Assembly: GCA_963664395.2 (NCBI GenBank)
Contig: OY761159.2
Span: 3,808,001-3,872,000, forward strand
Length of the DNA: 64,000 bases
Direction: 5' to 3'
Origin: Candidatus Binatia bacterium
GTDB taxonomy: Bacteria > Desulfobacterota > Binatia > Bin18
Shown: positions 4,523-61,745 of the stretch, piece by piece
How the letters are laid out: every line of letters starts with the position of its first letter
How positions within the stretch are numbered: position 1 is the first letter of the stretch
Translations under genes and position numbers: made by a program
Notes under the pieces: model-generated
Database searches by the model: none
What the model saw: the letters and a program-made list of their open reading frames with translations, nothing else
What the model was told of the DNA's origin: nothing

Positions 4523-5461
4523 ATGCCTCTCTTTAGGTTGCGGGTAGAAGGTGACGATATGTCCAATGCTGAACTCGTCATCGCGCAAGAAACAAATCTC
4601 AAACTTGAGCGCTATTTGGAGAGTTGGCTTGAAAATAGTCCTGGAGCACTGACCCAAGACGAGCTTATTCTTTGGATTGGTCGGCAAACGAGTGCCACAA
4701 CGGAGGAAGGTACTATCTTTCCTGATTTGCTTGGGGTGGATTCCGAAGGAAACCTTGTCATTGTCGAACTGAAGAGAGACCGAGCGCCACGCGACGTGGT
4801 AGCACAACTGCTGGAATACGCGGCATGGGCAAATGAACTTTCAGAGGATCAAGTTCATGAGATGGCGGAGGGGTACTTCCAGACTCGCGACGAGTTCCAA
4901 GGAAGGAGTTTCCATGATGTCTTCAATGATATCTTTGACCCCGACGAAGTCCCTGCGCTGAATCGGAGTTTGCGCTTATTTATTGTCGCGGAAGAAATAT
5001 CCCCGAGAGTATCGAGTGTTTGTCGATTCCTCCGAACTGCACATGGAATGGATATCAGTTGCATAGCTGTTTCAACGTTCCAGACGGAATCCGGAGAAGT
5101 GCTGGTCAATACGGAAGCAAAGGTTGGAGATGGAAACATTGGTGCTCCCAAAGCTCAGAGGCGGCTTGCCTCGCACATCTCGCAGTGGTCGGGTGACAAA
5201 TCGGTAAGAGAGGTGGTGTTGGAAGCAGTGCAGGAATTAACGGGAGGAGATACAAACGTTGAATTTACACCAAAAGAGGTCCGTGCACTCGTCTTGAAGA
5301 AGTATCCCAACTTCAATGAGGGTACAGTAGGAGCTCAGCTTTATATGGGAACTCAACTCTATAAGGGGACTTATCCTTATAAATATTATTGGCGGGTAGA
5401 AAAGGGGAAATACCGTCTGCACGATCTCAAAAGAGACAAGGTGCATAGGGGTGATGGGTAG
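4523..5461 (+). CDS. NucS/DUF91-like PD-(D/E)XK endonuclease with possible C-terminal winged-helix domain
   Basis: E..LE.YL, IGRQ, PDLLGVDSEGNLVIVELKR and VVAQLLEYA nuclease motifs. Confidence 0.8.
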   Translation: MPLFRLRVEGDDMSNAELVIAQETNLKLERYLESWLENSPGALTQDELILWIGRQTSATTEEGTIFPDLLGVDSEGNLVIVELKRDRAPRDVVAQLLEYAAWANELSEDQVHEMAEGYFQTRDEFQGRSFHDVFNDIFDPDEVPALNRSLRLFIVAEEISPRVSSVCRFLRTAHGMDISCIAVSTFQTESGEVLVNTEAKVGDGNIGAPKAQRRLASHISQWSGDKSVREVVLEAVQELTGGDTNVEFTPKEVRALVLKKYPNFNEGTVGAQLYMGTQLYKGTYPYKYYWRVEKGKYRLHDLKRDKVHRGDG

Positions 5462-5615
5462 GCTGACCAAAGATAGGAGCGCGCTAAGGGAGAGCGAAGG
5501 CGAGTGGCCTGAAGGGGAACTATTGCCAACGATATTGCAGGAATCTAGGTACATTGATCTACCTGGAATCTTGCAAATTAAAGAGAGGTGGACCCGAAGC
5601 CCATCCCTTGTATGA
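5454..5615 (+). CDS. Possible 53-aa ORF coupled to the nuclease gene
   Basis: ATG overlaps the nuclease stop by 8 nt; MGRLTKDRS...RSPSLV. It contains the hairpin below, so it may be spurious. Confidence 0.25.
   Translation: MGRLTKDRSALRESEGEWPEGELLPTILQESRYIDLPGILQIKERWTRSPSLV
5535..5576. terminator. Imperfect inverted repeat between convergent genes
   Basis: TTGCAGGA-A-TCTAGGTA / TACCTGGA-A-TCTTGCAA arms (two G-U pairs, one mismatch) with an 8-nt loop. Confidence 0.45.
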
Positions 5616-5650
5616 ATCCCGACTCTCCCTGTCCAAAAAGACCGACGAAA

Positions 5651-6553
5651 CTAGAGCCCTTGCAGAATTTTTGCGCGTTTGTCCTGGTACTCCGCGTCGG
5701 TCAGATAGCCTCTGTCATGCAAACGTTCAATCTCATCCAAACGTTCTTCGGTCGTGACGTACTGCACCGCAAGTCCTGACGCAGACGCGCTCCCATCCGT
5801 GCGGGTCTTGTAGCGGGCTTTAATAATTGCATCGACCTGACTGCCGTATTTTCGTAACGCATTGGCGCTGAGTGTGTTGAACAGGCGTGTCTGGCTGGTG
5901 TTTTCCTTGTCCTCGTCTCTGATGAGAGAGAGCGGCGCGTCCCAGATTTTTTGGGAGAGCGTTTTTTCATTACGCTGAACCCTGGTGCGGACTTTCCCCA
6001 GTTTCCGGTACGGCCGCGTTGGTGTCCCGGCCGTGACCACGACATCGACTGGAGACTTTTTGCCGGAATAGTCCCGTTCCTGCGTTGACGTTTGTGTCTG
6101 CACCACTTGCTTGGGCGGCTCATAATGCGTGGTCACATTGGCTTTGAGTGGAGCCAGCAACGGTTCGGGGAGCGAAGCAACACCGGAGCCAACCCGCACG
6201 ATACTGCCACTGTCGGAATTACTTTCAATAAAGACGTTCTGTTCGGACTTGCCGAGCGGTTTGTCCGGGTCGCGGACGGTCACCACCCAGCGGTCGTCGT
6301 TTTCAATTGCCTTTTGCTTGGGTACCCAGCCCTCAGCCTTGGCCGTTTTAATTAACAGCGCGGCCAGTTGTTGAGGCGGCGGCGAAAAATGCGCGGTTTG
6401 AGAGTCCGCATCGATTTTGCCCTCTTCTGTGAGCGGTGTGGTCGAAGCGGATTTGCCGGGGCTTGAGAGTTTTGGAATAAGGCTCTTACTGCACGCCGGC
6501 AGACTCAGTAAGAGCAGCGAGAGACACCCATAAAGCACAGCCCTGCGAATCAT
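5651..6553 (-). CDS. Lipoprotein with C-terminal SHOCT domain
   Basis: Lipobox LPAC after a hydrophobic stretch; C-terminal RLDEIERLHDRGYLTDAEYQDKRAKIL is SHOCT-like. Confidence 0.8.
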   Translation of the reverse strand: MIRRAVLYGCLSLLLLSLPACSKSLIPKLSSPGKSASTTPLTEEGKIDADSQTAHFSPPPQQLAALLIKTAKAEGWVPKQKAIENDDRWVVTVRDPDKPLGKSEQNVFIESNSDSGSIVRVGSGVASLPEPLLAPLKANVTTHYEPPKQVVQTQTSTQERDYSGKKSPVDVVVTAGTPTRPYRKLGKVRTRVQRNEKTLSQKIWDAPLSLIRDEDKENTSQTRLFNTLSANALRKYGSQVDAIIKARYKTRTDGSASASGLAVQYVTTEERLDEIERLHDRGYLTDAEYQDKRAKILQGL

Positions 6554-35530: not shown

Positions 35531-36639
35531 GCCAGGAAGTGAAGGACCTGAAAAACGGGCAGGACGAAAGTCTGGAAAGTCCAGGCTGGGACCTGCTTGA
35601 TCCGACCCGCGCTCCGCTCGACGTCGGGCTGGAAGAAGAGGCTGTCTGGCCTAACGAACACCGCGTCAAGGGATCGCTCCGCCCCCGCAGCCTTGAAGAG
35701 TATATCGGCCAAGAGGGAACAAAGCAGAATCTTGCGATAGCGATTGAAGCGGCCAAGCAGCGGGCTGACGTCCTTGACCATCTGCTCTTCTGTGGGCCGC
35801 CCGGATTAGGAAAGACGTCCCTGGCGTATATCATTGCGCGTGAAATGGACGTCGCGATTCGAGCGACAACCGGACCGGTCGTTGAGCGGCCCGGCGACTT
35901 GGCCGCTATTCTGACCAACCTTGAAGAAGGGGATGTCCTCTTCATTGACGAAATCCATCGACTCAACCATGTGGTTGAGGAGTTTATGTATCCGGCAATG
36001 GAGGACTTTGAACTTGACCTGGTTGTTGGCCAAGGCCCATCCGCGCGGACGGTAAAGTTGCCCTTGAAGCATTTCACCCTAGTCGGCGCCACTACTCGTG
36101 CCGGGCTCTTGACCTCACCGCTCCGGGATCGTTTTGGAGCAACGTTTCGATTGGATTTTTACCAGGTGGCCGAGTTGGAACAGATCATTCGTCGATCGGC
36201 CTCAATTCTTGAGGTCGAAATCGATGCGGGCGGAACCGTGGAAATCGCGCGTCGCGCGCGGGGAACGCCTCGGATTGCCAATCGCTTACTCCGACGGGTC
36301 CGTGATTATGCCCAAGTGAAGAAAGAGCCTGTTGTGACTCAAGAAGTGGCCCATGTCGCCCTCACGCTGGTTGAAGTGGATGAGGCCGGGTTTGACAAAA
36401 TGGACCTGGCGATTCTGCGGACGATTATCGAGAAATTCAATGGTGGACCGGTCGGTGTCGAGACCATAGCCGCGGCCATTGGCGAAGAGAAGAACACAAT
36501 TGAAGATGTCTACGAGCCGTATCTTTTGCAAGAGGGTTTTTTGCAGCGCACGCCACGGGGACGTTTGGCCACCCTCAAAGCATACCAACATTTGCACATT
36601 GACCGACCTGGTAAAAAAGAGCGGGGCGATTTGTTCTAA
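35527..36639 (+). CDS. ruvB: Holliday junction helicase RuvB
   Basis: [22 protein letters not shown] and [11 protein letters not shown] motifs. Confidence 0.98.
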
Positions 36640-36819
36640 CGAAAGCGTCCAAAACGAACGATGGTGGAACGTGACAGAACATTTTGGCTCGGGCACCGTG
36701 GGGGTCTCTCGATTCAAGGCGAGCGGGTCGCATTCCACTTCCCCTTCACGACCGGTCTGATTGTGAGTATTGATATATCCCTGTTTTTCTTGCTGCCGAG
36801 ACGATAAGAGCGAGAGAGT

Positions 36820-39144
36820 ATGGAAGCCTCAGTCCACGAGAGTCGTTCACACGAGAGTCGCTCACACGAGAGTCGCTCACACGAGAGTCGTTCAGGGGAG
36901 CACAAACGCCGCCAGCTCCGAGAAATATTTGTCATCCTCGCCGCTGCCCTCGGCGTTTTCTTGTTTGCCTTTCTCCAAAGTCGGTCTCCACAATTAAGCG
37001 ATAGCGAAAGCCTGGCCAGCAATATCATTTTCATTCTGCTGATCAATCTCAATATCATTCTGCTTGTTTTGCTCGTTTTTCTTGTTTGTCGGAACCTGCT
37101 GAAGCTGTTCTACGAGCGACGAGGGAAGCTCCCCGGTGCCCACCTCCGTTCTCGGCTCGTTCTCGCTTTTTTAGGAATTTCCCTTTTCCCGGCGGTACTC
37201 CTGTTTTTTATCGGTATCGGCTTTATGACGAAGTCGATCGAGAATTGGTTCTCTTTACGTGTTGAGCACTCGTTAAGTAGTTCGCTTGAGGTCGTTGATG
37301 GTGTCTATACGCGTCTTGCTGATGAGGCGCTCACGCACGCACGGGCAATCGCCCAGACGATTATCTCCCAAGATTTCCTTGAGCCGACGCGCTACGAGAG
37401 TCTGCAAGCCCGTATGAGTATCGAGCAGCACGAACGTGGCTTGGCTCAGCTCGTTGTGTATTCTCCTGCTCTCACCCTTTTGGCCAACGCGCCGGAGACA
37501 AGTGGGGCGCTGACGGCTCCCCAGCTCACCGAGGCCCTCTTGGAACGTGTCCGGTCTGAGACCCAAGAGGTTCAGCAAATCGTGACCATGGAGCAGGCAG
37601 AGCTGGTGTACGGAGGTGTACCGGTCATCGTTGGAGAACACCGTGTTGGTATTGTCGTGGCCGGCACTCAGGTTCCCGTGGACGTGGTCAGACAAGGCTT
37701 GCAGGTGGTTGAGGCGTTGAGGGAGTATCGCCAACTCAAAATTTTGAAACAGCCAATTAAAAACAATTATGTGATTACGATGTTCCTGGTCACCCTCGTC
37801 GTCATCTTCTCGGCGATCTGGGTCGGCGTGTATGTCGCGAAAAAAATTACTGTTCCGCTCCAACAATTATCGGCTGCGACGCGGGAGGTTGCGCGGGGCC
37901 ACTGGGCGCACCGGATTGAGGGAGAAGGGGAGGACGAAATAGGCACGCTCGTCTCCGCGTTCAATCGGATGACCGTCGAACTCCAGCAGAGTCACCAAGA
38001 ACTTGAGGCCCGACGGCGCTATATGGAGATTCTGCTCGGGAATATCAATGCTGGCGTGGTCTCGTTTGATCGGGACGGGCGGCTCTCCACCCTGAACCGG
38101 GCGGCAGAGCAGTTGCTTCATTTGCGTGCAGACAACGTGATTGGCCAGGACTATCGTGTCATCTTCTCCTCAAACGAGTTCCAAGAAGTGCAGCGCATCG
38201 TGCGCGAGCTCCTTCCGGTGCAATACGGCAATGGTAACGACGACAGCCACGAACAGCAGGGCCAGCTCCGTTTGGATCACCATGGACAAGTCCATTCCCT
38301 CTTGATAACAGGAACCCCTTTGCCTGATGACCGGGATAATGCGCTCGGTGTGCTGTGCTTTTTTGAGGATGTGACTCAGATCGTCCAAGTCGAACGCCTG
38401 GAAGCCTGGCGAGAGGTAGCCCGTCGGATTGCGCATGAAATTAAAAATCCGCTCACGCCCATTCAGCTTGCCGCTCAGCGTCTACACCGCCGCTTTGCTC
38501 CCCAGATTACAGACGGGAGCGGGGTGTTTGACGAGTGCGTGCAGAGCATTGTGCATGAAGTCGATGCTATTAAAAAACTCGTCAACGAATTTTCCACCTT
38601 CGCTCGTCTGCCGGCCGGAGAGCATAGTCCGCATGACGTGAATGCGTTGGCGCAAGAGACGCTTGTCCTGCTCGCTGAAGCCTACCGTGATTTGGATTTC
38701 GTCTTTACGCCGGATCGTTCGTTGCCGGTGTTCGAGCTTGATCGCGAGGGTATGCGTCGTGTCATTCGCAATCTGTTAGACAATGCAGTCGTAGCGTGTC
38801 GGGAAGGCGCGAATGGGACTCCGGGACGTATCGAAATCACGACTCGATATTTGCGCCCGCTTGGCATTGTACGCATCGAAGTCGCCGATAATGGCTGTGG
38901 GATCCCGCCCGAAGTAAAGGGACGATTGTTCGAGCCGTATTTTTCAACCAAAAGGGACGGGACCGGATTAGGGCTGGCGATTGTTGCAACCGTGGTGGCT
39001 GATCATCAAGCCTTTATCCGGGTGCGGGACAATGCGCCACGCGGCAGCCGGTTTGTGATTGAAATGCCGGTGCGCAGAAGTGCGCGTCAGACAAATCTGA
39101 GGCGTGAGAGACCCTCGTCGCCATCAATTGAAAACGTAGCGTGA
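36820..39144 (+). CDS. NtrY-like sensor histidine kinase (TM-HAMP-PAS-HisKA-HATPase)
   Basis: AWREVARRIAHEIKNPLTPIQL H-box, DNGCG and GTGLGL motifs; NtrY-type N-terminal TMs. Confidence 0.93.
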   Translation: MEASVHESRSHESRSHESRSHESRSGEHKRRQLREIFVILAAALGVFLFAFLQSRSPQLSDSESLASNIIFILLINLNIILLVLLVFLVCRNLLKLFYERRGKLPGAHLRSRLVLAFLGISLFPAVLLFFIGIGFMTKSIENWFSLRVEHSLSSSLEVVDGVYTRLADEALTHARAIAQTIISQDFLEPTRYESLQARMSIEQHERGLAQLVVYSPALTLLANAPETSGALTAPQLTEALLERVRSETQEVQQIVTMEQAELVYGGVPVIVGEHRVGIVVAGTQVPVDVVRQGLQVVEALREYRQLKILKQPIKNNYVITMFLVTLVVIFSAIWVGVYVAKKITVPLQQLSAATREVARGHWAHRIEGEGEDEIGTLVSAFNRMTVELQQSHQELEARRRYMEILLGNINAGVVSFDRDGRLSTLNRAAEQLLHLRADNVIGQDYRVIFSSNEFQEVQRIVRELLPVQYGNGNDDSHEQQGQLRLDHHGQVHSLLITGTPLPDDRDNALGVLCFFEDVTQIVQVERLEAWREVARRIAHEIKNPLTPIQLAAQRLHRRFAPQITDGSGVFDECVQSIVHEVDAIKKLVNEFSTFARLPAGEHSPHDVNALAQETLVLLAEAYRDLDFVFTPDRSLPVFELDREGMRRVIRNLLDNAVVACREGANGTPGRIEITTRYLRPLGIVRIEVADNGCGIPPEVKGRLFEPYFSTKRDGTGLGLAIVATVVADHQAFIRVRDNAPRGSRFVIEMPVRRSARQTNLRRERPSSPSIENVA
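36835..36894 (+). repeat. 15-bp coding tandem repeat x4 (HESRS)
   Basis: CACGAGAGTCGYTCA, four copies. Confidence 0.95.
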
Positions 39145-39163
39145 GGAAGGGGAGGGACGCCTA

Positions 39164-40474
39164 ATGGAAGAGCTGATTCTCATTGTAGATGACGAAGAAC
39201 AAATCCGGACGACGTTACGCGGGATTTTACAAGATGAAGGGTTCCGTACGCTCGAAGCGGACTCGGGTGAGGGCGTGGTAAACTTAGTCGCCACGTGGCA
39301 TCCGCGTCTCGTGCTCCTCGACATCTGGATGCCACACATTGACGGGATCGCCCTCCTTGAACAGCTTCAGTCTCAAAACCCCGACTTGCCTATTATTGTG
39401 ATTTCCGGCCATGGAACGATCGAAACAGCAGTCCGTGCCACAAAACTAGGAGCGGCCGATTTCCTTGAAAAACCCTTCTCGCTGGAAACCTTACTCCGTT
39501 CGGTCCATCGTGCCCTGGGAAAAGAGCCGGGCCACACCACCTCTGCACAGATAGCCGCCGCTACGGCTGATGCTGACTTCCCTGCGGTGCACGCTACGCG
39601 AAAAATCCCGGCTCGGACCATTCGTCAGAGTGTTGTCGTGCATGGCCGGGGGCTCCACTCGGGGGTCCGCACGGGAATTATTTTCCATCCCTTATCGCCG
39701 GGTAGCGGCATTGTTTTTGGCACGTTGTCCTCAGACATTATGATTCCGGCCACCGTCGAGTATGTCCAATCGACCGGCTACGCAACCAGCCTGTATCGAG
39801 CGGGTACGGGGGTGAAAACGGTTGAACATCTGCTCTCGGCCTTGCATGGCTATGGCATCACTAACCTCCTCATTAAAATGCAAGGAGAGGTTCCCATTCT
39901 CGATGGCTCGGCGCTGGAATTTTGTCAATTGCTCGAGAGTGCTGGCATTGTTGAACAAGACGAAGAGGTGGAAGCCTTGAGTGTGGACCGGACGTATCAG
40001 GTCGGCGACCACAGTGCCGGGAAGTTCCTCCGCATTGAGCCCTCAGAGCAGCTTGAGATATCCTACTGCTTAGAATATCCGGAGCCAGTTGGGAGACAGG
40101 AGTTCCACTACGTCCATGGTGATGCTGACCGCTACCGTGAGACTATCGCGCCGGCGCGTACATTTGGCTTTCTCAAGGAGATTGAGGCACTTGAAGAGAT
40201 GGGCCTTGCCAATGGGGGTCGGCTGAATAACTGCCTCGTGATAGGCGAGCAAGGCATCATCAATCCGCCCCTCCGCTTTGATGATGAGCTTGTCCGTCAC
40301 AAGATTCTTGATTTGCTCGGCGATCTCTATTTATTAGGCCAGCCCATCCGCGGCAAAGTGACTGCCTACCGGACAGGACATGGGGACAACGTCGCTTTGC
40401 TGCGGGCAATTCGAGAGGAGCAGACGCCGCGCGTGCCAGAGCCTCCGTCAAGGGTACCCTCGGCTCTCCAGTGA
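39164..40474 (+). CDS. lpxC: Receiver domain fused to UDP-3-O-acyl-GlcNAc deacetylase LpxC
   Basis: REC: IVDDE, LLDIWMP, ISGHG, FLEKPF. LpxC: GRGLHSG, TVEHLLSAL, EVPILDGSA, PARTFGF, RHKILDLLGDL, GH. Confidence 0.93.
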   Translation: MEELILIVDDEEQIRTTLRGILQDEGFRTLEADSGEGVVNLVATWHPRLVLLDIWMPHIDGIALLEQLQSQNPDLPIIVISGHGTIETAVRATKLGAADFLEKPFSLETLLRSVHRALGKEPGHTTSAQIAAATADADFPAVHATRKIPARTIRQSVVVHGRGLHSGVRTGIIFHPLSPGSGIVFGTLSSDIMIPATVEYVQSTGYATSLYRAGTGVKTVEHLLSALHGYGITNLLIKMQGEVPILDGSALEFCQLLESAGIVEQDEEVEALSVDRTYQVGDHSAGKFLRIEPSEQLEISYCLEYPEPVGRQEFHYVHGDADRYRETIAPARTFGFLKEIEALEEMGLANGGRLNNCLVIGEQGIINPPLRFDDELVRHKILDLLGDLYLLGQPIRGKVTAYRTGHGDNVALLRAIREEQTPRVPEPPSRVPSALQ

Positions 40475-40478
40475 CCCC

Positions 40479-41780
40479 TTACGGTGTCACCCGCTCTAAC
40501 ATTCTGGGAAATGGAATTGATTCTCGGACGTGATGCAGACCGCACAGCCAGGTGACCAGCCGCTCAATACCCATGCCGAAACCTGCATGGGGAACGGAGC
40601 CGTAGCGTCTCAGGTCAAGATACCAAGAGAAGGCTTCTGCGGGCAGGTCATGCGCCTCTATCTTCCCTTGTAGGACGGAGAGGTCGTCTTCACGTTGTCC
40701 GCCCCCTATGATCTCGCCATAGCCCTCTGGCGCTAAGACGTCCATGCATAAGGCAACTCTAGCATCATGAGGGTCGGTCTTCATATAAAAGGCTTTGTTT
40801 TCTGTCGGGTAGCGATGGATCATAACCGGACGGTCAAATTGTTCGGATAAGATGGTCTCGTCATCGCCGCCAAAGTCATCCCCCCACTGAATGTCAACGC
40901 CTTTCGCTTGCAGGCGTTCGACAGCCTCGCTGTAGCTAATACGTGGAAACGGCTTCTTCACCTGAACGAGTTTGGCCGTATCACGCTCAAGTGCTTGGAG
41001 TTCAGCTTGTCGGTTGGCCAGGACGCGCTGGACAACGGCCTCCAGAAAATCTTCGGCGAGATCCATGTCGTCATTCAAGTCGCAGTAGGCAACTTCGGGC
41101 TCAATCATCCAGAACTCGGTCAGATGGCGACGCGTTTTGGATTTCTCGGCACGAAAGGTAGGACCACAGCAGTAGACTTTGCCAAACGCCATGGCGCCGG
41201 CTTCCATATAAAGCTGGCCGCTTTGGGTGAGATAGACGGTGTCATCGAAATATTCGACCGGAAAAAGTGTGGTTGTCCCTTCACAGGCGGCGGGCGTGAA
41301 GATCGGGGCATCGAGGAGGGTAAAGCCATGAGCATCGAAGTAGTCTCGACAAGCCTTTATGACTTCACTGCGAATACGAAGCAAGGCATGCTGGCGTGAG
41401 GAGCGAAGCCACAGGTGGCGGTGGTCGAGCAGAAAGGCAATACCGTGTTCTTTGGGGGTAATGGGATAGTCGTGGGCCTGCTGAGTGACTTTTAAGTCGG
41501 TCACGCCGAGTTCAAATCCAATGGGTGAGCGGGGATCAGCCCGGACCGTGCCCTGTACGACAACGGACGATTCCTGTGTAAGGTCATGCCCTAAGGCAAA
41601 TGTCTCAGCAGAGAGGTCACCCTTGAATACCACACACGGGATCGTGCCGGTGCCGTCGCGGACTTGAAGAAAATGCAATTTTCCGCTGGATCGCTTGTTA
41701 TACAGCCAGCCTCGGAGCTCGACCTCTTGCCCTTCGTATGGCGCGATATCCCTTACATAAACCCACTCAGGCATAGGCAT
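40479..41780 (-). CDS. asnS: Asparagine-tRNA ligase
   Basis: [35 protein letters not shown] and [11 protein letters not shown] motifs. Confidence 0.97.
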
Positions 41781-41842: not shown

Positions 41843-42841
41843 ATGCGGCCGAGTCGGATAGTCGTATATGCCTCTCTGTTGCTCTTCCTGCTCACGACAG
41901 GTGGAGCACCGACACACGTGTGGTCGTCGGAGTGCATCTCTTCGTGGGACTATCTCCGCTGTCAGTTGCATATTGTTCAAATAGAGCGGGTTGCACGGCG
42001 TCTGCTTGAAGCGGTTCCTCAGCCGCCTCCTGTCCAGTTTATACTGGCCGTCGGCGAGCCGACGATTAACGCTGGAGCAACCTTTGGCAAAGTCATACTC
42101 TCCTCTGGAATGATGGAATTCCTTCGCTCGGACGATGAACTGGCGATGATTCTGGGACACGAACTGGCGCATATTACCCAGGGACACGTTGCCCGAGGAG
42201 CGACGAACAACGTCCTGTTGGATATCGGAAATGCCTTAGCCAGCGCTGTTCTCCCTGGATCGGGTGTGTTGGTCGATATGGTTGGCCAGCTTTTTCTGAA
42301 TCATTTTAATCAAGATCAGGAGATGGAAGCTGACCGGGTAGGGCTCCAGTATGCGGCTGATGCCGGCTATGATCCACGAGCGGGTGAGGCGGTGATGCGC
42401 CGCCTGGCCGAAGAGGTTCCTCAGAGTGCGACTGCGGGGTTTTTCTCTTCTCATCCGTCTTCCGTAGAACGGGCGAGCGCACTGAAGAAGAGGGCGGGCC
42501 GGCTGACCAGGCGAGCGGACGGCGTGCGGCGAACGAAGAGCGTGACCCGGTTTGGCCGGGATGAAGCGGCGTGTCGCCGGGCAAAGCCATATTTTTACCG
42601 TGCTCGGGAGAGTCTGAATTTAACCTGGAAAGCCGCGCTCTATCGTCGAGGCTTAGGCCAGTGCCCGGAGAGTCCACGCGCCCATTTTGAACTGGCCGAG
42701 ACCTATATCCAGCTGGGCCAGGATCGGCGGGCTGCTGCGGAACTGCGCGCGGTGCTGCGCTATGACTCGGGGTATCCGCGCGCCCAACGTCGGCTGCGTG
42801 AAGTTGAGGGCCGTCTCGCGTCGGGAAAAAGTCGAAAATAA
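41843..42841 (+). CDS. M48 metallopeptidase with C-terminal TPR
   Basis: Signal peptide, INA, HELAH, EMEAD and SSHP motifs. Confidence 0.9.
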
Positions 42842-56400: not shown

Positions 56401-58581
56401 ATGGATCACCCGCTTCTCGTGTCCTATCTGCGCTGGATCGTCCTCTTCCCCCTTTTAGGCGCCGTTATCAATGGTATTGTCGGTGCGAAGATCCAGGAGC
56501 GTTTTGGGAAGAACGGGATCAGTATCGTTGCCTGCTCTGCTGTTGGTCTTGCCTTTCTCTTTGCGCTGTGTGCCTTCTTTCAGCTCGCCAGCGTAGAACC
56601 TGAAGAGCGCTATCTTCTCGATACGCTCCTGCGTTGGATACATATCGGCTCGCTTCAGGTCGATATTGCGTTCGCTGTTGATCCCCTGTCCAGCATGATG
56701 GTCCTGATCGTCACCGGCATTGGCGGCCTGATTCATCTGTATTCGATCGGCTATATGCATGACGACGAAGCGTACTGGCGTTTTTTCGCCTATCTCAATC
56801 TTTTTACTGCGGCAATGCTGACCCTGGTGCTAGCCGATAACCTGTTGCTGATGTTTGTGGGCTGGGAAGGCGTTGGACTGTGCTCATATGGACTGATTGG
56901 ATTTTGGTATAAAGAGCATGCGAACACCACTGCTGGAAACAAAGCCTTTATTGTCAACCGGATTGGTGACGCAGGTTTTACGCTGGGTATTTTTATTATT
57001 TTCTGGAGTCTCTTTGAAGCGGGACACGGGACTACGGCGGTCTTTCGTGACCTGAGTCATCTTATTCATCATCTGGAAGGTCAGATGGTCTGGGGTGTCC
57101 CTGCGGCGACGCTAGCGGCGCTGTGTCTTTTTGTCGGGGCGACTGGGAAATCTGCCCAAATTCCGCTCTATGTCTGGTTGCCTGATGCTATGGCTGGACC
57201 GACTCCTGTGAGTGCCTTGATCCATGCGGCGACCATGGTGACTGCCGGCGTGTATATGATGGCTCGGATGCACTTTCTCTTTTCCATGTCGCCGGTTGCG
57301 CTCGGCGTGGTGGCGACGGTTGGGGCCCTCACCGCGCTGGTTGCGGCAACCATTGGCCTCGCCCAGTTTGATATTAAGAAAGTGCTCGCGTATTCAACTG
57401 TCAGTCAGCTCGGTTATATGGTACTTGGCGTCGGTGTTGGCGCGTATGGCGCCGCTGTTTTTCATCTGATGACGCATGCCTTTTTTAAAGCCTGCCTGTT
57501 TCTTGGATCGGGAAGCGTCATTCACGCCATGGGTGATGAGCAGGATATGCGCAAGATGGGCGGTCTCAGAGAGAAAATGCCGCTCACCTTTTGGACATTC
57601 TTGATCTCAACTATCGCTATTGCAGGTATCCCGCCACTGGCCGGATTTTTCTCAAAAGACGAAATTCTGTGGCTGACGTTTTCGGGTGGACATCCGCTCC
57701 TGTGGTTGATCGGATTTGCTGCTGCCGGGATGACCGCGTTCTATATGTTTCGTCAGGTCTTCATGGTGTTTTTTGGAGAGAATCGTGCGGATGAGCACAC
57801 CAAAGAGCATTTGCATGAGTCTCCTCCAGTGATGACCTCCCCCTTGATTATTCTGGCCGTGGGTGCGGTCTTTGCCGGTTTTCTTGGGGTGCCCCCAGCC
57901 CTCGGCGGGAGTAATATCTTGGAACACTGGTTGGCGCCCGTCTTTGCCGCTGGTCATGGCGGCGGCCATACTGCCCATCAGGTTGAAGCGATTGAGTATG
58001 TTCTTATGGCGGCCTCCGTTGGGATTGCCGCGGTCGGTATATTCCTCGCCTATCTGATTTACTATCGGCAGTCCGTATCCGCCGACACGTTTACTACGGT
58101 CGGAGGCGGTATACCGTATCAAGCCGTGTTCAACAAATACTATATTGACGAACTCTACCATGCGACGGCCGTCCGAGGGACGCTGGCTGTCAGCTGGTTG
58201 TGTTCCGCCTTTGACCGTCATGTCATAGATTTTATCGTAAATGGCGTTGCCAAGCTAACCGGCCTAGTGGGCTGGGCGGTTGGCCGGTTCGACCACTACG
58301 TCATTGATGGGCTGGTGAACGGACTGGCCGATGTCATTTTTGGTATCGGCAATCGGTTGCGTCAAATCCAGACTGGCAACCTCAGTATTTATCTGTATGT
58401 CATTGTTGGTACGATTGCCGTCTCCCAATTCTTACCGCGTATAGGAGCAGACGTATTATTTCCTGTCGTTATTGTGTTTCTCTCCCTGGTGGTCGTGGTT
58501 GGAATAGCGCTGTGGTTCTCCACCAGACGAATCCCGTGGCGTCTGATGTTTACAAAAGAGGGAGTCTCGGAACTCCGGTGA
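56401..58581 (+). CDS. nuoL: Complex I subunit L with extended C-terminus
   Basis: GWEGVG and GKSAQIPLYVWLPDAMAGPTPVSALIHAATMV motifs. Confidence 0.97.
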   Translation: MDHPLLVSYLRWIVLFPLLGAVINGIVGAKIQERFGKNGISIVACSAVGLAFLFALCAFFQLASVEPEERYLLDTLLRWIHIGSLQVDIAFAVDPLSSMMVLIVTGIGGLIHLYSIGYMHDDEAYWRFFAYLNLFTAAMLTLVLADNLLLMFVGWEGVGLCSYGLIGFWYKEHANTTAGNKAFIVNRIGDAGFTLGIFIIFWSLFEAGHGTTAVFRDLSHLIHHLEGQMVWGVPAATLAALCLFVGATGKSAQIPLYVWLPDAMAGPTPVSALIHAATMVTAGVYMMARMHFLFSMSPVALGVVATVGALTALVAATIGLAQFDIKKVLAYSTVSQLGYMVLGVGVGAYGAAVFHLMTHAFFKACLFLGSGSVIHAMGDEQDMRKMGGLREKMPLTFWTFLISTIAIAGIPPLAGFFSKDEILWLTFSGGHPLLWLIGFAAAGMTAFYMFRQVFMVFFGENRADEHTKEHLHESPPVMTSPLIILAVGAVFAGFLGVPPALGGSNILEHWLAPVFAAGHGGGHTAHQVEAIEYVLMAASVGIAAVGIFLAYLIYYRQSVSADTFTTVGGGIPYQAVFNKYYIDELYHATAVRGTLAVSWLCSAFDRHVIDFIVNGVAKLTGLVGWAVGRFDHYVIDGLVNGLADVIFGIGNRLRQIQTGNLSIYLYVIVGTIAVSQFLPRIGADVLFPVVIVFLSLVVVVGIALWFSTRRIPWRLMFTKEGVSELR

Positions 58582-58631
58582 ACCAGACTTTTTATCAAGC
58601 CCATTGTGTGGATGTGCGGTAAGGAGCTGCT

Positions 58632-60203
58632 GTGGAGTCCTCTATTCTTACCTTAATGATTTTCTTTCCCCTGGCGGGTATGGTCACCGTCTTCTGCCTG
58701 CCGAGCCAAGCGAAAGATTTAATCAGGTGGACTGCTTTTGCCTTTACCCTGCCAGCATTCTTTTTGGGAATCTGGCTCTACCAGAACTTTGATACCACGA
58801 CCACAGCGCTTCAGTTTGTGGTGAATGTCCCGTGGATTGAATCATTTAATATCCGCTACTTTGTTGGCGTCGATGGAGTCAGCATATCCATGATTTTGCT
58901 GACCGCCGTTCTGTGCCCTATCTGCATTCTTGCTTCGTGGAATATTGAGCGGGCCGAGAAGGGCTATTTCGCCTTGTTCCTGCTGTTGGATACGGCCATG
59001 ACGGGTGTTTTTTGCGCCATGGACTTCTTCCTGTTTTTTATCTTCTGGGAGTTGATGCTGCTGCCGATGTATTTCCTGATTGGCATATGGGGTGGGCCGC
59101 GGCGTGAATATGCCGCCATCAAATTTTTTCTGTATACCATGTTCGGCAGTGCGCTGATGTTGGTGTGTATGCTGGTCTTCTACTTTCAGGCTGGGGCTGT
59201 CGAAGGCGTCGGCTACACTTTTGATCTGACTCAGCTCCCCGCCGTGGCGCAGCACTTTCAGGCCGAGCCGGTCTTGTTTGGCTTCTCTTTGCCAGAGATC
59301 ATGTGGCTTGCGCTCTTTATTAACTTTGCCGTAAAAATCCCAGCCTTCCCCTTCCATACGTGGTTGCCTGACGCGCACGTCGAAGCGCCAACCGCGATCT
59401 CTGTCATTCTGGCGGGCGTGCTGCTGAAAATGGGAACATATGGGATTTTGCGCGTCAATTATCCCCTGCTCCCGGCAGAAACCTTCTTTTTTGCGCCGTA
59501 CTTTTTGGCGGCCTTAGGCGCCTGGAACATCGTCTATGGGGCCTTCTGCGCCTTAGCCCAGTGTTTTACCGAGCCCAAGGATCTGAAAAAGCTCGTGGCC
59601 TATTCCAGTATCAGCCACATGGGGTATGTCATGTTGGGTATGGCATCGTTTACTCCACAAGGGATCAATGGTGCGGTCTTACAGATGTTCAATCACGGCA
59701 CGATTACTGCCATGCTCTTCCTCATTGTCGGAGTAATCTATGATCGGGCCCACCACCGCCGCATTGACGGGTTTGGCGGCTTAGCTTCTGTCATGCCGGT
59801 CTATACCGGCGTGATGGGCCTCGCTTTCTTTGCCGCCATGGGACTCCCTGGTTTGTCGGCCTTTATTTCTGAGGTCCTGTGTCTACTCGGCGCATGGCAT
59901 ACGCATAAAATCCCCACCTTACTTGGCGCTCTTACCGTAATTATCACAGCGAGTTATCTACTCTGGACAATCCAACAAATGTTTCTCGGAAAACCACGTG
60001 ATGAGTACGCCGAGATGCATCTTTCGGAAATCAATACGAGAGAACTGTGTATGTTAGTCCCGCTTGGGGTTATTGTTGTGGTCCTGGGATTTTATCCGCA
60101 TGCCGTTCTGGACCTTATCGACGTCTCGCTCCAGGGGCTCAACGAGGTCGTGCTGTCTGCAAGTGCAAGCAGTCATGATGCAGCGGCAGTTGCTCTTCGC
60201 TAG
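58632..60203 (+). CDS. nuoM: Complex I subunit M
   Basis: FWELML, PFHTWLPDAHVEAPT and AYSSISHMG motifs. Confidence 0.97.
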   Translation: MESSILTLMIFFPLAGMVTVFCLPSQAKDLIRWTAFAFTLPAFFLGIWLYQNFDTTTTALQFVVNVPWIESFNIRYFVGVDGVSISMILLTAVLCPICILASWNIERAEKGYFALFLLLDTAMTGVFCAMDFFLFFIFWELMLLPMYFLIGIWGGPRREYAAIKFFLYTMFGSALMLVCMLVFYFQAGAVEGVGYTFDLTQLPAVAQHFQAEPVLFGFSLPEIMWLALFINFAVKIPAFPFHTWLPDAHVEAPTAISVILAGVLLKMGTYGILRVNYPLLPAETFFFAPYFLAALGAWNIVYGAFCALAQCFTEPKDLKKLVAYSSISHMGYVMLGMASFTPQGINGAVLQMFNHGTITAMLFLIVGVIYDRAHHRRIDGFGGLASVMPVYTGVMGLAFFAAMGLPGLSAFISEVLCLLGAWHTHKIPTLLGALTVIITASYLLWTIQQMFLGKPRDEYAEMHLSEINTRELCMLVPLGVIVVVLGFYPHAVLDLIDVSLQGLNEVVLSASASSHDAAAVALR

Positions 60204-60230
60204 TGTATTGAACGAGATGGAAAGAGTGCC

Positions 60231-61745
60231 ATGAACCTCGGCAGTATTGAAAGCCTGGTATATTTCTACCCTGAAGGGACTCTCGTTCTCTCTATTCTGA
60301 CGGTTTTTATTGTAGACCTCTTTGTGGAAGATAAGGAGCGGCTCGGCAACATTGCACTTGTTGGAGCCGCTCTGGCCTTAGTCTTTACTTCAGGTCTGTC
60401 CTTCTTTGGTGTCCGCTTTATCGAAGGATTGCAAGGAGCTGGGGAAGGGTGGCTGTTTCATCGCATGATTGCGCTGGACAGTTTTGCGATTTTCTTTAAG
60501 GTGATTCTTTCCTTGTCTGTGGTGGGAGCCATCTGGATGTCTCTTGGCTCAAAGGAGATCAAGGGGCCAAATCAGGGGGAATATTATGGAATTCTGTTGG
60601 CGAGCGGACTCGGCATGTTTTTTATGGCCTCGGCAACGAATCTGCTCCTGGCCTACCTTTCTTTGGAGTTCGTCAGTCTGACATCTTATGTCCTGACGGG
60701 GTATTTGACGCGAAATCGAAGATCTGGAGAAGCCGCGCTCAAATATTTAATTTACGGTGGTGTGGCATCCGGAACCATGATCTATGGCATGAGCTGGATA
60801 TTTGGTTTGACCGGAAGTTTGGATTACGCGGAGATTAATGTTGCTCTGCTGCAAAATGCTCCAGATCAACTTACGCTATTTATTGCCCTTGTCCTCATGT
60901 TGGCAGGGTTCGGCTATAAGATTGCTGCCGTTCCCTTCCATATGTGGGCTCCCGATGTCTACCACGGGGCGCCCATTCCCGTGACGGCTTTTCTTTCGGT
61001 AGGCTCAAAGGCAGCTGGCTTCGCTCTCCTCATGCGATTTTTCTATCCAGCGCTCTCTCAACGTGGAGACGCCGGTATGTGGCAATTCGTCCCCGGTGTC
61101 GAGTGGCCACAGCTTATGCTTATCGTTGCTATGGTGACAATGACTCTTGGGAACTTAGCAGCCCTCAACCAGCATAATGTGAAGCGTCTCTTAGCCTATT
61201 CCAGCATCGCTCACGCCGGCTACATTCTTATGGGGTTCGTTGTTCTCAGCGACGAAGGGCTGCGGGCCATGTTGTTCTACATCATCGTCTATTATTTGAT
61301 GAACCTTGGCGCGTTTATCGTCGTCATGGTTGTGGCGAATAATACTGACCGCGAAGATATCGAGGGCTTTCGTGGGCTTGCCTGGCGAGGTGGCGCCTTG
61401 CCTGCAGCAGCGATGGCAATTTTCCTCTTTTCGCTTACGGGCCTTCCTCCGTTTGCGGGCTTCATCGGAAAATTTTATCTCTTTGCCGCCGTGATCAAAG
61501 GACAATTCTATTGGCTTGCCGTGGTTGGGATATTGAATAGTGTTGTGTCCCTCTATTATTACGCTCGCATTGTAAAGACGATGTTCCTTGATGAGCCGTC
61601 TGATGCAGAGGGTGAAGTTGCTCTCGACCCACACAATGGATCTTTACTTGTGATCCTGAGCGTTGCGACTGTTGTCCTTGGAGTGTATTGGGCACCTGTC
61701 TTCGATTTTGCTGACCGTTCGACACACTTTTTCCTAGGCAGCTAG
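60231..61745 (+). CDS. nuoN: Complex I subunit N
   Basis: EAALKY, VPFHMWAPDVY and KRLLAYSSIAHAGY motifs. Confidence 0.97.
   Translation: MNLGSIESLVYFYPEGTLVLSILTVFIVDLFVEDKERLGNIALVGAALALVFTSGLSFFGVRFIEGLQGAGEGWLFHRMIALDSFAIFFKVILSLSVVGAIWMSLGSKEIKGPNQGEYYGILLASGLGMFFMASATNLLLAYLSLEFVSLTSYVLTGYLTRNRRSGEAALKYLIYGGVASGTMIYGMSWIFGLTGSLDYAEINVALLQNAPDQLTLFIALVLMLAGFGYKIAAVPFHMWAPDVYHGAPIPVTAFLSVGSKAAGFALLMRFFYPALSQRGDAGMWQFVPGVEWPQLMLIVAMVTMTLGNLAALNQHNVKRLLAYSSIAHAGYILMGFVVLSDEGLRAMLFYIIVYYLMNLGAFIVVMVVANNTDREDIEGFRGLAWRGGALPAAAMAIFLFSLTGLPPFAGFIGKFYLFAAVIKGQFYWLAVVGILNSVVSLYYYARIVKTMFLDEPSDAEGEVALDPHNGSLLVILSVATVVLGVYWAPVFDFADRSTHFFLGS

Follow-up and report, generated by a model that had tools for sequence, protein, structure and literature searches.

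LpxC commits the cell to lipid A synthesis. Only for enterobacteria is there a good understanding of how the enzyme is regulated, and there the control operates through proteolysis. In the CheB methylesterase, the GGDEF proteins PleD and WspR, and the HD-GYP protein RpfG, a receiver domain is joined through a flexible linker to an enzyme, and phosphorylation gates that enzyme. Here, we describe a conserved variant of these two known kinds, enzymatic-output response regulators and LpxC regulation, encoded in a 64,000-nucleotide stretch of DNA from a Candidatus Binatia bacterium (contig OY761159.2, forward-strand positions 3,808,001 to 3,872,000; hereafter the window). A single 436-amino-acid protein joins a receiver (REC) domain to LpxC, directly downstream of an NtrY-like sensor histidine kinase. 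We consider it reasonably probable, from the sequence and comparative data below, that the cell's housekeeping LpxC is built as a response regulator and paired with this kinase, and that receiver phosphorylation is predicted to alter LpxC output.

Work on Desulfovibrio vulgaris reports lpxC as the single mapped target of the NtrC-type regulator DVU2934, and describes lpxC in Syntrophobacter as adjoining an operon orthologous to that of DVU2934 (PMC3333781; also PMC4114195 and 10.1101/2021.11.05.467447). In Rhodobacter sphaeroides, deletion of ntrYX is reported to raise lpxC messenger RNA 8.8-fold and to increase lipopolysaccharide (LPS), apparently indirectly (PMC7240162), and a 2025 review of lipid A regulation has NtrYX inhibiting lpxC transcription in R. 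sphaeroides and Caulobacter crescentus (PMC12444477). That review nowhere uses the words fusion, fused, or receiver (PMC12444477). A literature search for REC-LpxC proteins, or for LpxC as an output domain, found no description, with most subscription-journal papers lying outside the search; within that scope, it agreed with an earlier sequence-only reading of the window, which knew of no characterisation of such a mode of LPS control.

The fusion gene occupies 39164..40474 on the forward strand (436 codons plus stop) and was delimited from the open reading frame (ORF) list, Pfam, and NCBIfam. Residues 5-114 (39176..39505, +) matched Response_reg (PF00072) at 108.1 bits against a cut-off of 30.2, and residues 151-416 (39614..40411, +) matched LpxC (PF03331) at 291.6 bits against a cut-off of 27, covering positions 2-266 of the 268-position model. 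The NCBIfam lpxC model TIGR00325 also matched, at 261.6 bits (cut-off, 187.25). Between the two domains lies a linker of residues 123-147 (39530..39604, +), and residues 423-436 (40430..40471, +) form a C-terminal tail; both are unconserved and predicted to be disordered. A Pfam scan of the 436-residue protein reported no AAA+ or helix-turn-helix (HTH) family, a separate scan of the linker found no HTH_8 or other credible family, and the CheB methylesterase catalytic domain was absent from the Pfam results. The layout of receiver, linker, and complete LpxC, with neither AAA+ nor HTH domain, is therefore as the sequence-only reading had proposed.

All five residues of receiver phospho-chemistry are kept in the fusion, namely, D9, D10, D53 (the phospho-acceptor, in LLDIWMP), S81 (in ISGH), and K103 (in EKPF), and F100 is also present. 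In the LpxC part, E221, H222, T333, H379, K380, D383, D387, and H406 align with their counterparts in Aquifex aeolicus LpxC; their zinc-ligand, catalytic, and active-site roles are assigned by reference to the LpxC literature. Every motif by which the two domains had originally been recognised (LLDIWMP, ISGH, EKPF, EH, HK...D, and the final H) was located in the ORF. The best receiver-only NCBIfam match was the NtrX model (NF051870), which aligned at model positions 4-123 with 125.3 bits against a cut-off of 600, and the REC-AAA+-HTH layout is not present. RssB models matched across the REC region only, and the LpxC-FabZ model NF009667 matched across the LpxC part only.

The kinase gene (36820..39144, +; ORF list and Pfam) encodes a 774-residue NtrY-like membrane sensor histidine kinase with an N-terminal transmembrane and extracytoplasmic region followed by HAMP (339-390), PAS (405-518), HisKA (530-600), and HATPase_c (641-752) domains, all four above their Pfam cut-offs. 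NtrY_N scored 22.9 bits on residues 39-325, slightly below its cut-off of 23.2; the same family passes at 38 bits in a related kinase from an unfused lpxC cluster (locus L109, described below). The kinase stop codon (TGA) lies at 39142-39144 and the fusion start codon (ATG) at 39164, and the 19-nucleotide gap between the genes (39145..39163, +), the spacing initially read, contains a GGAGG ribosome-binding site. A promoter and terminator scan of 36500-40700 detected no terminator-like site between kinase and fusion and was otherwise uninformative. No other regulator gene lies within the operon. We think it likely, as part of the overall reading, that the kinase and the REC-LpxC fusion form a two-gene operon.

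Joining of two genes by a frameshift or a chimeric contig would produce such an ORF as an assembly or annotation artefact, and contigs of public sequencing runs were mapped onto 36700-40600. Run X4, which may be the source sample, covers the whole interval with 2 differences. Run X9, from a different study, yielded a 5,298-nucleotide contig over 36877-40600 that carries 22 substitutions and no indel. Two metatranscriptome contigs from separate studies also cross the boundaries: X15 record 6 covers 38798-39811, a span that takes in the end of the kinase gene, the beginning of the fusion, and the boundary between receiver and LpxC, and X16 record 10 covers 39145-39684. Both PF03331 and PF00072 were found in all 120 of the best relatives listed (66 to 100% identity), and at least 25 loci with a full-length fusion were found among genome contigs, many in closed chromosomes. 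The independent X9 contig, the 120 relatives, and the 25 loci rule out the artefact, to which we assign a negligible probability; the junction is genuine, and numerous independent assemblies contain the fusion.

At its annotated 5' end, the kinase ORF contains four tandem 15-nucleotide units encoding HESRS (36835..36894, +; sequence, relatives, and contigs). Relatives align only from residue 27 onward, and the X9 contigs fragment at 36835-36906, which together suggest either repeat copy-number variation or an uncertain kinase start codon.

The distribution of the fusion was then charted. Twenty-four of the loci among genome contigs are Binatia-type, under labels such as Binatia, Binataceae, or 'Deltaproteobacteria', and one more carries the label Spirochaetota; relatives at 80 to 89% identity are titled Candidatus Binatia metagenome-assembled genomes (MAGs). 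A homolog of the window kinase (38 to 87% identity) lies directly upstream of the fusion in all 24 Binatia-type loci (L002-L024 and L027), so the linkage that the sequence-only reading had proposed for checking, together with the two-domain architecture, holds throughout this set. In closer relatives, the gene order is yebC-ruvC-ruvA-ruvB-kinase-fusion, after which comes a class II aminoacyl-tRNA synthetase gene in convergent orientation. One record titled 'uncultured Enterobacteriaceae bacterium' (L016) holds a Binatia-type ruvAB-kinase-fusion locus at about 80% identity, and this bin has almost certainly been assigned to the wrong taxon.

Across the phylum, 201 genomes were searched. A full-length collinear match was obtained in 26, and a further 22 matched over the LpxC part at 47 to 59% identity within open frames of 450 to 837 codons, such that about 48 of the 201 carry the fusion. 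In all other genomes that gave a match, the LpxC is plain, with 36 to 45% identity in the rows listed. Ten of the 22 genomes with longer frames were examined: six encode REC, Sigma54_activat, AAA_lid_14, and LpxC in one protein of 685 to 795 residues, and four encode proteins of 453 to 479 residues with a linker of about 50 to 60 residues. Of the best 150 matches from 1.84 billion cluster representatives, 15 were clusters of the REC-AAA+-LpxC type and roughly two dozen were clusters of full-length REC-LpxC. NCBI labels on some family members include Nitrospinota, Spirochaetota, and Methylomirabilota, MAG labels being uncertain. Public records call these proteins just 'UDP-3-O-acyl-N-acetylglucosamine deacetylase,' a name under which the signalling domain is easily overlooked.

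Residue conservation was evaluated in an alignment of 34 short and 21 long fusions with identity to the window protein down to about 33%. In the receiver, D10 of the acidic pocket is present in 34/34 short and 20/21 long forms, the phospho-acceptor D53 in 33/34 and 20/21, the switch residue S/T81 in 34/34 and 21/21, and K103 in 34/34 and 20/21. The LpxC residues E221, H222, H379, K380, D383, D387, and H406 are invariant in both sets (34/34 and 21/21), and position 333 is T in 53 of the 55 and S in 2. Linker conservation is close to zero across the same alignment. The ratio of nonsynonymous to synonymous substitution rates (dN/dS; Nei-Gojobori, 190 pairs from 20 close Binatia orthologs, with 17 to 26 pairs per region dropped as saturated and with high dS) was 0.09 for the receiver and 0.07 for LpxC, whereas the linker and the C-terminal tail gave 0.54 and 0.65, respectively. 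The receiver and LpxC are both under strong purifying selection.

An AlphaFold2 model of the fusion, built from a 51-sequence alignment, had a mean predicted local distance difference test score (pLDDT) of 87.9 and a predicted template modelling score (pTM) of 0.85, with pLDDT below 50 at residues 123-144 (linker) and 423-436 (tail). Its LpxC part superimposed on A. aeolicus LpxC chains with target-normalised template modelling (TM) scores of 0.94 to 0.96 and root-mean-square deviations of 1.4 to 1.6 Å, the best being 0.96 and 1.4 Å. A Foldseek search against the PDB matched the LpxC part only (TMq of about 0.6), and no listed hit extended over both domains.

The genome that contains the window (5.04 Mb in 14 contigs, 95.9% complete, with contamination of 5.4%) contains a single PF03331 match, the fusion itself; the question of whether this is the only lpxC was thereby answered. 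The fusion was also the only LpxC in all five other fusion-bearing genomes tested (three with the short form and two with the long form). Exceptions in the phylum sample are G034, which has a plain LpxC besides the fusion, and G199, whose second copy is interrupted by a TAA codon. As the window's genome also has LpxA-type genes (2 hits) and LpxB (1 hit), a lipid A pathway exists, and the presence of a sole LpxC alongside these genes argues that the LpxC of the fusion is active. A search of the same genome with the NtrX model returned the receiver of the fusion and five other matches, none over the cut-off: three full-length NtrC-family regulators, one regulator without its C-terminal part, and one AAA+-only stretch. 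Two NtrC-family loci in this genome, each with an adjacent kinase, gave near-identical scores (C7:10053-11375 and C1:2129091-2130413) and could represent a duplicated region or, with contamination at the level given above, bin redundancy.

The long forms, which consist of REC, Sigma54_activat, AAA_lid, and LpxC, bear on the origin of the window protein. One of them (L082) aligned with the NtrX model at positions 3-448 of 452, with 303.8 bits against the 600-bit cut-off, and on that alignment, it is classed as an NtrX-like regulator carrying LpxC at its C terminus. Neither the GAFTGA loop nor a hydrophobic-DE Walker B motif was found in any of 21 long forms, whereas GAFTGA and the Walker B DE were both present in 4 of 4 unfused regulators; judged by these motifs, the AAA+ module of the long forms is degenerate. 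In two long forms, the region between the AAA+ lid and LpxC contained no HTH_8 or other credible Pfam family, although the NtrX model aligns through it.

Unfused relatives were found in 5 of 20 plain-LpxC loci of the phylum, where genes for an NtrY-like kinase and a REC-AAA+-HTH_8 regulator come after lpxC in the same orientation; in a sixth, the kinase is 3.8 kb away. The kinases of these clusters are 37 to 40% identical to the window kinase. A DUF4390 gene lies between lpxC and the kinase in the three clusters tested (L109, 6921-7496; L110, 5422-5979; L119, 5684-6244), and no DUF4390 homolog was detected in the window's genome by tblastn with the L119 copy. When the L119 kinase was searched against the window's genome, the window kinase scored 481 bits and the next best match 97.8. 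The window REC shares 51.7% identity with the receiver of the unfused-cluster regulator, whereas its identity to the other receivers of its genome does not exceed 39%; it is clearly the ortholog of the regulator that accompanies NtrY-like kinases in other genomes.

A maximum-likelihood tree of 132 LpxC domains (quick search, root not inferred) contained one branch, with a Shimodaira-Hasegawa-like approximate likelihood ratio (SH-aLRT) support of 96, that separated 66 rows from 66 plain LpxCs. The former comprise all 24 short, 12 long-linker, and 21 long forms, 4 N-truncated AAA-LpxC proteins, and 5 LpxC-only rows (P0148, P0152, P0161, P0163, and P0196), which may be N-terminally truncated gene calls or fragments or true secondary losses. 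Architectures are interspersed within the fused group, with at least 6 to 7 changes per label even when only strongly supported branches are counted. This topology fits a single predicted fusion event, after which the AAA+ module was lost repeatedly. The window protein descends from an NtrX-like regulator while being itself no NtrX, and it represents the reduced end of a family whose long members are NtrX-like regulators plus LpxC and whose unfused relatives are lpxC-DUF4390-ntrY-regulator clusters. The sequence-only reading had suggested an origin by deletion within an ntrX-lpxC pair. The ancestry is supported, as REC-AAA+-LpxC proteins match the NtrX model nearly end to end and fall in the same LpxC clade; deletion alone does not, since the unfused order lpxC-DUF4390-kinase-regulator means that the fusion needed rearrangement plus deletion.

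Among described systems, NtrY/NtrX of R. sphaeroides and C. crescentus resembles the window system in several respects. The window kinase has an NtrY-like layout of membrane N terminus, HAMP, PAS, HisKA, and HATPase_c; NtrX is the best NCBIfam match of the window receiver, and long members of the family match it end to end; and the functional target is the same, LpxC (PMC7240162, PMC12444477). Unlike the fusion, known NtrX binds DNA, and its effect on lpxC, one of dozens of affected genes, is transcriptional (indirectly so in R. sphaeroides), whereas the window protein lacks AAA+ and HTH domains and has its receiver covalently joined to the enzyme. The D. vulgaris system DVU2931-DVU2934 is likewise a two-component system dedicated to lpxC, from a related deltaproteobacterial lineage (PMC3333781), and the lpxC-DUF4390-kinase-regulator cluster of the 5 plain-LpxC loci resembles it by description. 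In contrast to the fusion, it acts through DNA binding upstream of a separate lpxC gene.

CheB, PleD, WspR, and RpfG offer the best analogy for how the fusion might work, with a likeness confined to architecture and proposed mechanism; their outputs differ from that of the fusion, in which LpxC, rather than being an enzyme of signalling, carries out a biosynthetic step in an essential pathway. The FtsH/LapB(YciM)/YejM system of Escherichia coli differs in relying on regulated proteolysis through a C-terminal degron of LpxC and the LapB adaptor, whereas no LapB was detected in the window's genome and the tail of the fusion is unconserved. One other natural protein in which LpxC is fused to a second domain is known, LpxC-FabZ (NF009667), and there the partner is metabolic and C-terminal, compared to the signalling domain at the N terminus of the window LpxC.

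In the proposed mechanism, the NtrY-like kinase would phosphorylate D53 of the fusion, and the phosphorylation state of the receiver would alter LpxC output post-translationally. The likeliest route, by analogy with CheB and similar proteins, would be an altered contact between receiver and LpxC or an altered oligomeric state; we favour control of activity by such means because receivers commonly gate enzyme domains in this way. Lipid A flux would then track a signal, from the envelope or redox in nature, to which the kinase responds, and this control would take the place of both NtrYX-type transcriptional control of lpxC and E. coli-type FtsH/LapB proteolysis. The phosphorylated form may be the less active one, by analogy with the repression of lpxC by alphaproteobacterial NtrYX. 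Short and long forms could share a mechanism, as NtrC-family receivers control assembly. The gene pair thus suggests, at the level of sequence, direct signal control of LPS synthesis by a kinase and a REC-LpxC protein, in which phosphorylation is inferred to change LpxC activity or stability.

Several observations weigh against this proposal. A homolog of the window kinase adjoins the fusion in only 6 of 20 phylum-sample loci (L082, L083, L084, L093, L098, and L099); it is non-adjacent in the other 14, one of which (L094) ends at a contig edge, and a different kinase lies near the fusion in one locus (L095). The Spirochaetota fusion locus lacks the kinase homolog as well, and the linkage is therefore lineage-specific. 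Short-form linkers range from about 20 to about 110 residues and the long forms hold a whole AAA+ module in their place, which argues against any mechanism that requires a precise tether. In favour of the proposal, the pTM of 0.85 despite a disordered linker is a weak hint of a defined interdomain arrangement, pTM alone being weak evidence for one. The RNA-library contigs that cross both junctions in two studies hint that the fusion is expressed, but RNA libraries can hold DNA, so that bridging contigs are no proof of transcription.

The main rival to control of activity is control of abundance, in which receiver phosphorylation would expose or hide a degradation signal or serve as a handle for a protease adaptor, as in RssB-ClpXP, so that the kinase triggers proteolysis of LpxC. 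In E. coli, proteolysis by FtsH/LapB determines how much LpxC is present, and a role for Lon has been proposed in certain alphaproteobacteria, according to the review (PMC12444477); the window's genome encodes two FtsH-type M41 proteases. LapB was sought in this genome with Zn_ribbon_LapB, which gave no hits and is an unspecific model that fires in 10 of 14 control genomes, Gram-positives included, and with NF008757, whose hits were all weak and of TPR type, the best reaching 38 bits where the cut-off is 363; with the genome 96% complete, absence is not proven, and the failure to detect LapB would require a different route for targeting LpxC. The match of the receiver to RssB models, confined to the REC region, points the same way, as does the Spirochaetota MAG locus (L025), where a 225-residue protein consisting only of a Lon substrate-binding domain (5179-5856, +) lies directly upstream of the fusion, with no adjacent kinase. 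This neighbour may hint at a link to proteolysis, but it occurs in a single locus, and the C-terminal tail, which is the site of the E. coli degron, is unconserved, with the dN/dS of 0.65 given above. No observation separates abundance from activity control, and the two are compatible and not exclusive; we regard control through abundance as unlikely, at something under one chance in five.

A receiver used for localisation, docking LpxC to the membrane kinase and so positioning the enzyme at the inner membrane, or as a sink that takes phosphate from a kinase acting in reality through a different regulator, appears improbable. The five other NtrX-model matches in the window's genome are possible alternative targets, and the review notes that a LapB homologue of Neisseria may localise LpxC to the inner membrane (PMC12444477). 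The operon, however, has no other regulator gene, the window REC is clearly the ortholog of the NtrY-paired regulator, and a pure sink needs no fusion to an essential enzyme in so many lineages. Less probable again, to the point of being very doubtful, is that the receiver is an evolutionary leftover of an NtrX-LpxC fusion and that LpxC is constitutive. The visibly degenerate AAA+ module, lost several times, does indicate that the regulator part is decaying within the family, but the selection data make a vestigial receiver unlikely: its dN/dS is near that of LpxC and far under that of the linker, the phospho-chemistry residues are kept in about 54 of 55 fusions, and the kinase adjoins the fusion in every Binatia-type locus.

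We return, then, to the reading in which receiver phosphorylation acts on LpxC output. The chances seem to us about even that LpxC truly serves a two-component system as its output domain and that the series from unfused cluster through NtrX-LpxC to REC-LpxC is a 'Rosetta stone' for an ancient job of NtrYX in LPS homeostasis. With a receiver on the sole LpxC of a cell, post-translational control of outer-membrane synthesis by a kinase becomes open to direct testing. The family of fusions physically ties NtrYX-type systems to LpxC and gives a mechanistic anchor to NtrYX-envelope phenotypes in alphaproteobacteria and Desulfovibrio that have so far been indirect.

Elsewhere in the window, a gene at 41843-42841 (+), 1.4 kb downstream of the fusion and past the convergent tRNA synthetase gene, encodes a Peptidase_M48 domain with a TPR domain, and it is syntenic in several relatives. 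This domain pair may resemble that of BepA, an outer-membrane/LptD quality-control protease. The 54- to 62-kb part of the window has a strongly negative AT skew and lower GC content, which has an ordinary explanation, as it coincides with three Proton_antipo_M genes (56401-61745, +; Pfam) for membrane subunits like NuoL/M/N of complex I.

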